Shown here piece by piece: positions 6,311 to 45,789 of a DNA stretch of 64,000 nt. Position 1 is the stretch's first letter, and each line of letters begins with the position of its first letter. Origin of the DNA: Escherichia coli (lineage in GTDB: Bacteria; Pseudomonadota; Gammaproteobacteria; Enterobacterales; Enterobacteriaceae); NCBI RefSeq assembly GCF_046105845.1, contig NZ_CP151004.1; one strand, given 5' to 3'. The notes beneath the pieces are model-generated. The model saw only the letters and a list, made by a program, of their open reading frames with translations. It was not told where the DNA came from and did no database searches. Position numbers and translations under genes: made by a program.

Positions 6311-6733
6311 TTACGGTGTTACCCCTTTTTTTAAAAGAATATTCCCGTACTTCGCTCGTTCGCCTGTGATAACGATCGCAAAGGCTTTTTGCGCCCGTTC
6401 ATAAAACGCAAAACGATTGATGCGGATGATGTCAGGACACGGGGCTTGTAGTGAAAGCGCATTACGGTAACGTCGTTCTACTTCAGGATCGAGAGTGTCA
6501 CCTTCTACCGCCGCCATCATCACCAGCGGCGGTGCATAACTGTCCAGTTCAAATAACGGGATAATCGCCTGGAGCAAGTCGCTCACCAACAGGCCATCAG
6601 CGCGGATCACCTGCGGTCCCATCGAATGGGCGGGAAAGTGAGCATCGGAAAAAATAATTTCATCTCCATGCCCCATCTCTGCCAGCACTTTCAATAGTTC
6701 GGGAGAAATTAACGGCGAAATTGTTTTCAGCAT
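6311..6733 (-). CDS. fucU: L-fucose mutarotase FucU (RbsD/FucU family)
   Basis: 140 aa, RbsD/FucU fold; last gene of fucPIKU. Confidence 0.9.
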
Positions 6734-11386: not shown

Positions 11387-11932
11387 AGCATCCTCTTAGG
11401 TTCAGAAGCTTAAGCACGTAATCGGTTATGTTTTCAAAAGTGCAAAACCAGCGAGTTCGGGCTTCATATCAGTGAATATTTGCCTGTCAGAAATGAACTC
11501 ATGGATTCATTTTCAAATAAAAAACGCTCTGTAATATGACGGCGGTCACACTTATTAGCTGGGAGGTGACTTTATGTGACTACCATCACTTTAATAATCG
11601 AAATTTCATGCCCGTTTCAGAAAATAAATCATAAAAAACACAAACCCGATGACCGTATTAATTGTTTGTGCCGAAAACGGGCATTTCTGGCGAGGGGGAA
11701 TGGAAAAATGACCGTTTTGATAAATATTTTTAAGAGCGGTCATTTTTAATAGGGTTATAAAAAGAGAACTTGCAGTTATTTACTGTGATTAGTTGAACCA
11801 GGTCACAAAATATAAGCTTGTGAATTTCTTTCTGGTTAATCAGGAAGAAGATGGTGGGTAATTAAACGGCTAATTCAATAGTGTGAAAGGAACAACATTA
11901 TTGCCCTGTTTTGAATCAGAGAGAGGTAGCTA
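11387..11932. promoter_or_regulatory. divergent fucPIKUR / fucAO control region
   Basis: 546 bp AT-rich non-coding spacer between divergent fucP and fucA starts; known CRP/FucR-controlled region in E. coli. Confidence 0.6.
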
Positions 11933-13860: not shown

Positions 13861-16094
<2,234 letters not shown>

Positions 16095-16151: not shown

Positions 16152-17441
16152 TTAGCTGAACAGAGAGTAGAAGATTGCGGAGATTGCAATCAGACCCATC
16201 ACGACAACGAATACGTTGCTGATGTGACCGCTGTACTTACGCATTGCCGGTACTTTCTGAATTGCGTACATCGGCATCAGGAACAGGATCATCGCGATGA
16301 TTGGGCCGCCCAGGGTTTCAATCATACCCAGGATGCTCGGGTTCAGGGTGGCAACAATCCAGGTCGTTACCAGCATGAACAGCGCAGTGATACGGTTCAG
16401 CTTGTTGATTTCGATAGACTTACCTTTACCACGCAGAGATTTAATCACCATACCGTTGAAGCCTTCACGTGCGCCCAGGTAGTGGCCGAGGAAGGATTTG
16501 GTGATAGCGATAATCGCGATAATCGGAGCCATCCACGCGATAACCGGTGCGTTAAAGTGGTTAGCCAGGTAAGACAGAATCGAGATGTTCTGCTCTTTAG
16601 CCGCAGCCAGGTCTGCCGGAGTCAGGCTCAGTACGCAGCTGAAGACGAAGAACATTACGGTCAGCACCATCATGATGTGTGCGAATGCCAGGATCTTCGA
16701 ACATTTCTGTTCTGCCATATCGCCGTACTCTTCACGCTTCGCAACGGCGAAAGAAGAGATGATCGGAGAGTGGTTGAACGAGAACACCATTACCGGAATT
16801 GCCAGCCACAGGGTCATCCACAGACCGTTTCCGGTTGCCGATGCAGTGTCCAGAGACAGCGTTTCCAGTGCTGCGCCGTTCCACTGCGGGATCAGGTACA
16901 GAGCCAGCAGCATCAGTACGCCAACAAACGGGAATACCAGAATACTCATCGCTTTAACGATCATCTGCTCACCGAAGCGAACGATGGTCATCATACCCAC
17001 GATCAGGATCAGCGACAGAATCGCACGCGGCGGTGGTGTCATACCCAGCTGGTGAGACATGAAGCTTTCAACTGTATTGGTGATTGCCACGCTATAAACC
17101 AGCAGGATCGGGTAGATAGCGAAGAAGTAGAGCAGGGTAATCAGTTTACCTGCGCCAATACCAAAGTGTTCTTCTACAACCTCGGTGATGTCTTCGCCCG
17201 GGTTTTTACCAGACAGTACGAAGCGAGTCAGACCGCGGTGAGCAAAAAATGTCATCGGGAACGCAAGGATAGCCATGATGATCAGCGGGATCATACCGCC
17301 AACACCGGCGTTGATTGGCAGGAACAGCACGCCCGCGCCGATTGCCGTGCCGTAAAGGCCCAGCATCCACATGGTGTCTGTCTTGCGCCAGGCACTACGA
17401 GAGTCTTTCGACGCAATCGTGCTGGTTTGAGTCGTTTCCAT
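16152..17441 (-). CDS. sdaC: serine:H+ symporter SdaC (HAAAP family)
   Basis: 429 aa polytopic membrane protein directly upstream of sdaB. Confidence 0.9.
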
Positions 17442-17950
17442 CTATTTCTCCTGGAGGAATGCAAATAATTCAGCTTTTAGCCAGTTCAGCCCGGGAAGGT
17501 GCCTGACCGTAAAAATGAAATCTGTCTATCGGCGATGGCTTAATCATTTACCGCCGTAATAATTTGAGGGCGGAAAGATACACACAAGTTATGTATCTAT
17601 CAGTGATCTTGATCCCAAATACAATAATCTACTTGGAAGATAGATTATCCCAACGCTTTACTCTGTAAATCAAAAGTAAAAGAGAATTTAAGGGCAATAT
17701 TTGCCCATTAAACGACATCTGACTTCTTCCGGGGCGCGCAATATATGTAGGTTGAACTGAAAAAATCAATACTTTTAGTTAATCATGGCGATAATTTCTT
17801 TTTCATAGCGATAAAATGTGGTTTATGAAAATAGGGAAACGTTTGCGTTGCAATATAAATTGTATGACATATTAACTGTGATGATATTTGTCGCGTGAGG
17901 GTGGTAAGAAACATTCATATAACAAATGAAATAAATTGATGGGTATGTGA

Positions 17951-17987
17951 CCAAAAACGAGAAAACCCGGCAACAAACGTCACCGGG
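17951..17987 (-). terminator. putative rho-independent terminator of ppnN
   Basis: On the minus strand, hairpin CCCGGTGACGTTTGTTGCCGGG followed by TTTTCTCGTTTTTGG just after the ppnN stop. Confidence 0.55.
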
Positions 17988-17996
17988 GGAGGGAGA

Positions 17997-19361
17997 TTAC
18001 GTGCAGATTTCGTAGCAAGGGATGTAGGCTGAGCCTGGCAACTTCATACGATGCTGGGCAACAAAACCCTGTAGCAGGTCATCCATACGACGCATAATCT
18101 CTTTATCGCCGTTGATTTTATAAGGACCAAACTCTTCAATAGCGCGAATACCGACTTCTTTTACGTTACCCGCCACAATACCGGAGAACGCACGGCGCAG
18201 GTCGGCAGCCAGCACTTCAACGGGTTGATCCGGGTAAAGCTTCAGATTTGCCATATTCTCGTGAGACGGCTCAAACGGCATTTGCAAATCTGGCGCAATG
18301 CGCATTGACCAGTTAAAGCTGTAGGCATCGCCTGTGTCGCGGCGATTTTCTTTCACCAGCGGCATCGATTTTTTCATCTGACGAGCGACTTCAGCGGCGT
18401 CATCAATGATGATGCGGTAATGGCGGCGCGCGTTTTCACCCAACGTATGCACGACAAACTCGTCCAGTACGCGGAAGTAGTCGGCGCTCTCTTTTGGGCC
18501 GGTGAGGATCAATGGTAAAACCTGATCTTTGTTGGCCGGGTTCATTAAAATTCCCAGCAAATACAGCAACTCTTCTGCCGTACCCACACCGCCAGGGAAG
18601 ATAATGATACCGTGAGCGATACGGACAAACGCTTCCAGACGTTTTTCGATATCCGGCATGATGATCAATTCGTTGACCAGCGGGTTAGGCGGTTCAGCGG
18701 CGATAATCGATGGCTCTGTCATACCAATAAAACGACTGTCTTTGTAACGCTGCTGTGCGTGTCCGACCGCAGCACCTTTCATTGGCGCTTCCATCGCTCC
18801 CGGACCACAGCCGGTGCAGATATTCAGCTCACGCAGGCCCAGCTGATTCCCGACGCGACGGGCATACAAATACTCGTTTTCGTTAATTGAGTGCCCGCCC
18901 CAGCAGACCACCATATTTGGCGCTTCACCAACATGCAGCGCGCGAGCGTTACGCAAGATGGAAAAGACCAGGTTAGTGATGTGGACGGAGTTGTCGAGAT
19001 TCAGGTTGGGAAAACGAACGGTGTTATGGATTTGCCCGTAAACGAAGAGAATGTCGCGCAGAACCGCGAACAAGTTGGCCTGCAAAGCGCGAATAATTCG
19101 CCCATCGACAAAAGCCTCTTCCGGGGGATTAATCAGTTCCAGCTTTACGCCGCGTTCACGGCGCAAGACGTTAATATCGAAATTTTCAAAACGAGACAGC
19201 AATTCTTTGCTGTTATCGGTCAAACTACCGGAGTTCAGTACGGCAAGTGAACAGTTGCGAAACAGTTGATAGAGGTCGCTGCTGGCGGTGCGTTTAAGCA
19301 TATCCACTTCCAGCTGCGACAACATATCCATGGAGCCAAGCGGGCTAATATGTGTAATCAA
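17997..19361 (-). CDS. ppnN: pyrimidine/purine nucleotide 5'-monophosphate nucleosidase PpnN (LOG family, formerly YgdH)
   Basis: 454 aa; LOG-family core ([14 protein letters not shown]...[10 protein letters not shown]). Confidence 0.9.
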
Positions 19362-45471: not shown

Positions 45472-45789
45472 ATCGTATTCCCATTTGTAATAGACAAAAA
45501 AAAGAGAAAAGTAAGCCGCCCTTTCAGGTGGATTACTTTTCTCAGGTCTCTAGTAATTGCAATAAGAAATAACATGGAAAGCAGTGGTGTTGTGTGAGAG
45601 TAATCACGCTTCTGCTTTTTAAAATTATTTGACAATTCGAATATCACACTGTGATTACGATCACATTAGCGATTATGCCCTTATGATAAAAATTATCTCC
45701 AGTTACCAGAGATAATGAGAAAGGTAACTTCCCTCTCGCGGGGGAAGTTACCTTTCTTTTTTTTTGCCTTACGGAAATTGGAGCTAACT

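Follow-up and report, generated by a model that had tools for sequence, protein, structure and literature searches.

The 555-bp gap between ppnN and sdaC is very probably a multi-input region controlling sdaCB at both the transcriptional and the post-transcriptional level, with no separate gene inside it. The products of sdaCB are an L-serine:H+ symporter and L-serine deaminase II. Read on the minus strand toward sdaC, the gap comprises the ppnN terminator, two YieP sites, a PurR operator and a distal promoter, followed by a stretch bound by Lrp, a CRP site, a proximal promoter and a leader of about 125 nt that carries an ArcZ/Hfq target. The gap is already known as a documented sdaCB control region, and no hidden element was found in it. 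Binding of CRP, PurR, YieP and Lrp, the effect of ArcZ and the position of an activating insertion are published results, while the conserved geometry of the CRP site and the proximal -10 hexamer is shown here.

The window, i.e. the whole stretch of 64,000 nucleotides analysed here, is over this region the reverse complement of the ppnN–sdaC–sdaB region of K-12 MG1655. K-12 and window coordinates were aligned, and each feature was placed by its exact sequence. According to both the ORF listing and the K-12 annotation, ppnN (17997-19361), sdaC (16152-17441, with its start codon at 17439..17441) and sdaB (14727-16094) all lie on the minus strand, and the gap between the first two occupies exactly 17442-17996, its K-12 counterpart being 556 bp long. 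The GC content is 0.345-0.365 within the gap, compared to 0.49-0.575 in the flanking genes. The annotated boundaries and the fall in GC content from about 0.5 to about 0.35 bear out the description given in an earlier note on this DNA, of an AT-rich, 555-bp region upstream of sdaC. The same note called the region unusually long, which also holds: in a 50-kb sample of K-12 the gap ranks second in size among the gaps between annotated features and first among those between co-directional genes, and it is long in 76 further species. For this survey, genomes of Enterobacteriaceae, one per species, were scanned for SdaC, yielding 80 loci (L002-L081 being the loci other than the window); ppnN lay directly upstream in 76 of them, and in all 76 the gap measured 436-648 bp. 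Counts out of 77 below refer to these 76 loci together with the window.

Among complete E. coli genomes the gap region is single-copy, with no feature annotated under it, in 5,425 of 5,426. Outside Escherichia its identity to the window is only 37-54%, whereas the neutral benchmark, fourfold degenerate sites of sdaC, gives 58%. Within E. coli, identity to the gap reaches at least 99% in only 373 of the 5,425 genomes and is 95-99% in the remainder, and the SdaC protein of the window (16155-17441) is 100% identical to those of Escherichia whittamii and Escherichia sp. MOD1-EC7003. Judging from these sequences, the source strain may perhaps belong to a minority lineage of Escherichia.

At its upstream end the gap begins with the intrinsic terminator of ppnN (17953..17987, minus strand), a stem-loop CCCGGTGACGTTTGTTGCCGGG with a U tract, which was identified by a terminator scan and by Term-seq. 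The stem comprises 9 bp, 6 of them GC pairs, and runs from 17987 to 17966, after which follows TTTTCTCGTTTTT, with the U tract extending to about 17953; the terminator scan also reads the tract after the stem as TTTTCTCGTT. The primary Term-seq 3' end of ygdH/ppnN has been reported at K-12 position 2927709 (Adams 2021, PMC7815308), which corresponds to window position 17961, so that a GC-rich hairpin, a U tract and an RNA 3' end within that tract, as expected of a Rho-independent terminator, are all found here. The ppnN hairpin that had been proposed at 17951..17987 is thereby essentially confirmed by the scan and the Term-seq end.

The CRP site and the candidate promoters

The most strongly conserved part of the gap is the CRP site together with the proximal -10 hexamer, no other block rising far above the neutral benchmark (0.86-0.97 here compared to 0.58). 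The 22-bp CRP site (17599..17620, minus strand) has the core TGGGATCAAGATCACT at 17617-17602, centred on 17609.5, which agrees with the consensus TGTGA-N6-TCACA at 8 of its 10 core positions. In a CRP ChIP-seq study of ETEC H10407, the motifs AGTGATCTTGATCTCA and AGTTATGTATCTATCA were found under a single sdaC peak (PMC4287617), and these are the reverse complements of window positions 17617-17602 and 17602-17587, respectively; sdaC has also been stated to be Crp-regulated (PMC10882989). The sequence TGNGATCNNGATCACT is present in 76 of the 77 sequences, the lone exception having GTCACT as its right half, and the mean conservation of the core is 0.86, compared to 0.58 at the fourfold degenerate sites of sdaC. 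The second ChIP-seq motif corresponds to a weaker CRP-like sequence, TGATAGATACATAACT (17587..17602, minus strand), which overlaps the spacer of the proximal promoter and shows little conservation in other genera. Six matches to the pattern TGNGA-N6-TCAC occur in the window, where 1.8 are expected, and at least two of those other than the sdaC site coincide with published CRP sites. The other matches lie at 6366-6380, 11575-11589 and 45593-45665, and the sequences at 6366 and 45650 equal the published CRP ChIP-seq motifs for (fucU)/fucR and ygcW/yqcE.

Downstream of the CRP site lies the core of a predicted proximal promoter (17565..17580, minus strand), recognised by a conserved -10 hexamer, TATCTT (17580-17575), and with a predicted start at 17568-17565. 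The hexamer reads TATCTT in 69 of the 77 sequences, TACATT in 5 and TATCGT in 3 (conservation 0.97), and in all 77 it is located 21 bp downstream of the CRP core. The sequence of the spacer itself varies, and the 43-bp arrangement from CRP site to hexamer shows no variation in length (77/77). With the centre of the CRP site 29.5 bp upstream of the first hexamer base, CRP would be centred at -41.5 if the hexamer occupies -12..-7, and the invariant geometry argues for a class II CRP-dependent promoter followed by a leader of about 125 nt, counted from the predicted start. The hexamer is a 4/6 match and lacks a proper extended -10. According to PMC10882989, earlier annotation of the sdaC promoter was computational and none has been verified experimentally, so the predicted proximal start and the -41.5 position both derive from the -10 hexamer alone. 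A divergent, plus-strand promoter sharing the CRP site was also considered; the corresponding -10 region is unconserved. The earlier note had proposed an analysis of conservation, and across the 77 sequences it is the CRP site and the -10 hexamer that emerge as strongly conserved; by phylogenetic footprinting, this pair at class II spacing is likely the core sdaC promoter. CRP cannot be the sole driver of the operon, since expression of sdaC has been reported to be highest in glucose-rich medium (PMC8282354), where cAMP-CRP is low.

The likely core promoter suggested by footprinting thus differs from the annotation published in 2024 (PMC10882989), which is placed about 165 bp further upstream. 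At this distal position (17740..17769, minus strand), the promoter scan and the location of a published insertion indicate a sigma70-type promoter with a -35 element TTGATT (17769-17764), an 18-nt spacer, a -10 element TATATT (17745-17740) and a GC-rich discriminator; its predicted start at about 17733 would give a leader of about 290 nt. Frendorf et al. 2024 likewise annotate the -10 element of PsdaC, with a GC-rich discriminator, at this site (PMC10882989). A promoter-activating +ATT insertion that arose by evolution at K-12 position 2927928 (Heyde 2021, PMC8546631 Table S1) maps to window position 17742, within the distal TATATT, and insertions in the sdaC -10 have been reported to raise expression, with growth on serine being possible without cAMP (PMC10882989). 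Conservation of the distal promoter is moderate only (0.50).

Could the distal promoter then be the only one, starting at about 17733 with a leader of about 290 nt, so that the CRP block is transcribed and acts as a downstream DNA site or as a cis-acting RNA? Its -10 is the only promoter element with genetic support, the site is the best sigma70 match of the scan (9/12), and the 312-nt distal leader folds marginally better than shuffled sequences (z = -1.72; 3 of 100 shuffles equalled it). However, the activating insertions were selected in a cya strain, in which a CRP-dependent promoter would be silent; what they demonstrate is room for improvement at the distal site, and not its being the main promoter of the wild type. 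Moreover, a class II geometry that is invariant in 77 of 77 sequences is hard to explain unless polymerase initiates at this point. Conservation of the distal -35 is limited to Escherichia, Salmonella and some Citrobacter, and RNAalifold finds 0 pairs in the segment from the PurR box to the CRP site, which contains most of the distal leader upstream of CRP. A single distal promoter is, on this evidence, improbable. The published sdaC* promoter mutations would activate a separate upstream promoter rather than render the CRP-dependent promoter independent of cAMP.

A repeat search also revealed two direct repeats, TTATCGCNATGA, conforming to TTATCGC(T/C)ATGA and 20 bp apart (17783..17814, minus strand), at roughly -50 to -80 relative to the distal promoter. 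Conservation across genera is confined to the TTATC core of the first copy. The repeats are possibly a putative regulator site upstream of the distal promoter.

Upstream regulator sites and their spacing

Three further regulators bind upstream of or between the two candidate promoters. Two YieP sites, ATTTGTTATATGAAT (17913..17927, minus strand) and ATATGTCATACAATT (17858..17872, minus strand), are identical to Site 1 and Site 2, respectively, of Freddolino and colleagues, who supported them by IPOD-HR, pulldown with mass spectrometry, EMSA and lacZ reporters (PMC8282354); the second site coincides with a ChIP-exo and IPOD-HR peak in the same study. The part of the gap that holds them cannot be aligned outside Escherichia, the mean identity there being 0.24. 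Upstream of the predicted distal start, they are separated from it by approximately 130 and 185 bp, which is far for a direct activator, so there may be a third promoter nearer the PurR box. One candidate of this kind would have its -10 in the TATATT that immediately precedes the PurR box (17857-17852), but we do not claim it, the hexamer being unconserved in other genera.

The PurR operator, ACGCAAACGTTTCCCT (17833..17848, minus strand), matches the 16-bp palindrome ACGNAAACGTTTGCNT at 14 of 16 positions. It is the reverse complement of AGGGAAACGTTTGCGT, the motif listed for sdaC-sdaB under a ChIP-chip peak in the PurR table of Cho et al. 2011 (PMC3159470), where enrichment was stronger with adenine. 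Boxes agreeing at 12 or more of the 16 positions were found in 49 of the 77 species, compared to 17 of 1,540 shuffled controls. For Lrp, published ChIP shows occupancy of the region upstream of sdaC.

The distance between the PurR box and the CRP site (window 17618-17848, minus strand) is 232 bp in 49 of the 77 species and 231-233 bp in 65, whereas the flanking distances vary, with 42-262 bp from the ppnN stop codon to the PurR box and 111-138 bp from the -10 hexamer to the ATG. An alignment of this segment from 30 species is almost gapless, needing 219 columns for 215-216 nt. Outside a few motif islands, namely TTTATC, TTTTTACAG, AATGGTAGCCTTCGCGCCC, ACAG and GATTATTG, the sequence of the segment diverges at approximately the neutral rate. 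The removal of insertions and deletions from a segment that bears signatures of neither coding nor RNA structure suggests a constraint on spacing, or on helical phase, among the bound proteins. It is conceivable, if on the doubtful side, that the roughly 275 bp from the PurR box through the distal promoter and the CRP site to the proximal -10 form a length-locked regulatory module, in which the proteins assemble into a phased nucleoprotein complex instead of occupying independent sites; such a complex may take the form of DNA wrapped by Lrp, or of a loop coupling the two promoters. The fixed spacing of 231-233 bp suggests an architectural constraint that can be tested.

Within this segment, repeat searches, alignments and folds pointed to a palindrome specific to Escherichia, GGGCAAATATTGCCC (17692..17706, minus strand), at a position where other genera carry the conserved block TAGCCTTCGCGCC. 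Most genera share a block of the form AATGGTAGCCTTCGCGCCC(G/A)TAAAT (window 17684-17715, minus strand; e.g. L047:2612-2827), which in Kluyvera is a perfect inverted repeat (AATGGT-N10-ACCATT) and whose centre gives way in Escherichia to the palindrome GGGCAAATATTGCCC.

The sdaC leader and the search for RNA or protein genes

The short leader predicted for the proximal promoter ends in a target of the small RNA ArcZ. The pairing site, CCAGGAGAAAU (17444..17454, minus strand), was located by its complementarity to ArcZ and overlaps the Shine–Dalgarno (SD) sequence AGGAG (17452-17448). Using the K-12 arcZ sequence, CCAGG(A)GAAAU at -13..-3 pairs with 5'-AUUUCCCUGG-3' of ArcZ, leaving one A bulged. 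This is in agreement with the statement in PMC11331407 that cites Papenfort 2009 and places the pairing at -13..-2 of sdaC. In E. coli, overexpression of ArcZ lowers the sdaC mRNA to about 0.21 (PMC7213987 supplement). The sequence CCAGGAG is conserved in most genera. The energy of the duplex alone is no better than for shuffled leaders; this quantity does not discriminate because the duplex calculation ignores intramolecular structure. Seed complementarity to ArcZ at the translation initiation region was thus found here, and the function of the pairing is taken from the literature. The earlier note had reckoned with an sdaC promoter and a long 5' UTR in the gap. The promoter elements and a leader are indeed present, but most of the 555 bp appears to be upstream regulatory DNA, with the YieP, PurR, Lrp and CRP sites, and not UTR.

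The length of the gap, conserved across the family, could instead reflect an unannotated small RNA, which the earlier note had left as a possibility, or a structured RNA acting in cis, for example a riboswitch or an attenuator that responds to serine/glycine status. The clearest candidate for a structured element is a 5'-proximal stem-loop in the minimum free energy (MFE) fold, CGGCGGU...AUCGCCG with an A/U-rich loop (17530..17556, minus strand), at about +12..+40 of the predicted proximal transcript. A hairpin closing an A-rich loop of 15-19 nt recurs in most of 70 distinct sequences, with a mean z of only -0.94, and pairing in one fixed register holds for 63-64% of cells, compared to 26-45% in slid controls. 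The loop has the consensus AAAAAUUAUAAAAAA, while the stems vary by genus with some compensatory changes, as exemplified by two Kluyvera loci (GGUAUCGG/CCGGUACU versus GGCAUCGG/CCGGUGCU). However, measures of covariation are weak and mostly within the shuffled range, and a covariance model gave no gain over the MAFFT alignment, with 64% of cells pairing. As a weak lead, the hairpin is a candidate Hfq-binding or mRNA-stabilising element. A second feature that could favour an RNA is an inverted repeat immediately upstream of the CRP site (17627-17645, minus strand), which pairs in 73% of cells, compared to 29-49% in slid controls, and could be either a hairpin or a palindromic protein site. The repeat reads ATCTA...TAGAT in Escherichia, CCAC...GTGG in most genera and TACG...CGTA in Cedecea.

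The remaining tests speak against both kinds of RNA. A scan of the gap against Rfam 15, likewise suggested in the earlier note, returned no relevant match at E<=10, the only hit being to a nematode snoRNA model with 14.4 bits against a gathering threshold of 65. The terminator scan of both strands of the gap detected no terminator-like site beyond that of ppnN, and no Term-seq 3' ends fall between K-12 positions 2927709 and 2928350, i.e. from the ppnN terminator to +121 of sdaC. The 3' end at 2928350 itself lies 121 nt inside the sdaC coding sequence (window position ~17320; Adams 2021 supplement, PMC7815308). The MFE of the proximal leader is no better than that of shuffled sequences (z = +0.38). 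For the proximal leader of 30 diverse species, RNAalifold yields a consensus energy of -0.8 kcal/mol and 4 pairs; for the 216 nt that separate the PurR box from the CRP site, it yields 0 kcal/mol and 0 pairs. In the sdaC leader, neither a covarying structure nor a terminator or SD-sequestering helix, the marks of a structured cis-regulatory leader, was detected, and the best-ranked papers of a literature search that combined sdaC with leader, riboswitch, attenuation or uORF held nothing relevant. In addition, the conserved blocks of the gap correspond to known protein-binding DNA sites. The suggestion of an unannotated small RNA gains no support from Rfam, terminator, Term-seq or structure tests, and we consider it very unlikely that the gap encodes such an RNA or a structured one acting in cis.

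We can practically dismiss the notion that the gap encodes a leader peptide or small protein. The candidate, the 25-codon ORF MIKPSPIDRFHFYGQAPSRAELAKS (17547-17470), does fall inside the leader predicted for the proximal promoter, its end being 28 nt upstream of the sdaC start codon, but ATT or ATC stands in place of its ATG outside Escherichia, no 3-nt periodicity is seen in its conservation (0.47/0.53/0.46), it has no proper SD at a usable distance, and none of the reading frames across the gap is open throughout the species. The ORF was thus rejected on its start codon, which is unconserved beyond Escherichia. An antisense ORF of 34 codons was rejected as well, as it is broken in 73 of 73 species outside Escherichia and its conservation in tblastn is at the DNA level only. 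ORFs over the conserved block match other species in all three frames, which indicates conservation of the DNA and not of a coding sequence. A start codon, a frame and codon-periodic conservation across species, as a leader peptide should display, were not found in the gap, and the judgement in the earlier note that it holds no credible ORF stands, no conserved ORF having been found.

Proposed regulation and comparison with known systems

We infer where the proximal transcript starts, that its promoter works by a class II mechanism and how much each of the two promoters is used, and the following scheme is drawn with that in mind. With the CRP/-10 pair as the likely core promoter, cAMP-CRP centred at -41.5 would recruit RNA polymerase to a proximal promoter that has no usable -35, and activation by CRP would couple the uptake and deamination of serine to carbon limitation. 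The distal promoter, approximately 165 bp upstream, would be weak or conditional in the wild type, active under other conditions and strengthened by the sdaC* insertions. YieP, PurR and Lrp would tune the output to nutrient richness, purine status and leucine, respectively. Finally, ArcZ together with Hfq would occlude the SD and thereby block the initiation of sdaC translation.

In class II CRP-dependent promoters, such as galP1 and melR, CRP is centred at -41.5. The sdaC region resembles these in having a CRP site, bound in vivo, whose centre is 29.5 bp upstream of the first base of a -10 hexamer, in the lack of a good -35 at its proximal promoter, and in the catabolic function of the operon. 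In contrast to galP1 and melR, the sdaC start is a predicted one, a second promoter lies about 165 bp upstream, and PurR, YieP and Lrp bind the same region. There is also a likeness to complex amino-acid catabolic promoters of E. coli such as tdcABC, dadAX and gcvTHP, with their CRP, Lrp and PurR inputs, as sdaC joins activation by CRP with repression by Lrp; as for gcvTHP and glyA, its PurR operator ties serine, glycine and C1 metabolism to purine status. It differs from tdcABC, dadAX and gcvTHP in the position of the PurR box: the nearest candidate start is about 100 bp downstream of the box, and the spacing to the CRP site is fixed at 231-233 bp. At the post-transcriptional level, the pairing of ArcZ with sdaC belongs with the Hfq-dependent small-RNA targets at ribosome-binding sites and resembles that with STM3216, the seed spanning the SD at -13 to -2 and blocking initiation, and here sdaC is the published target itself.
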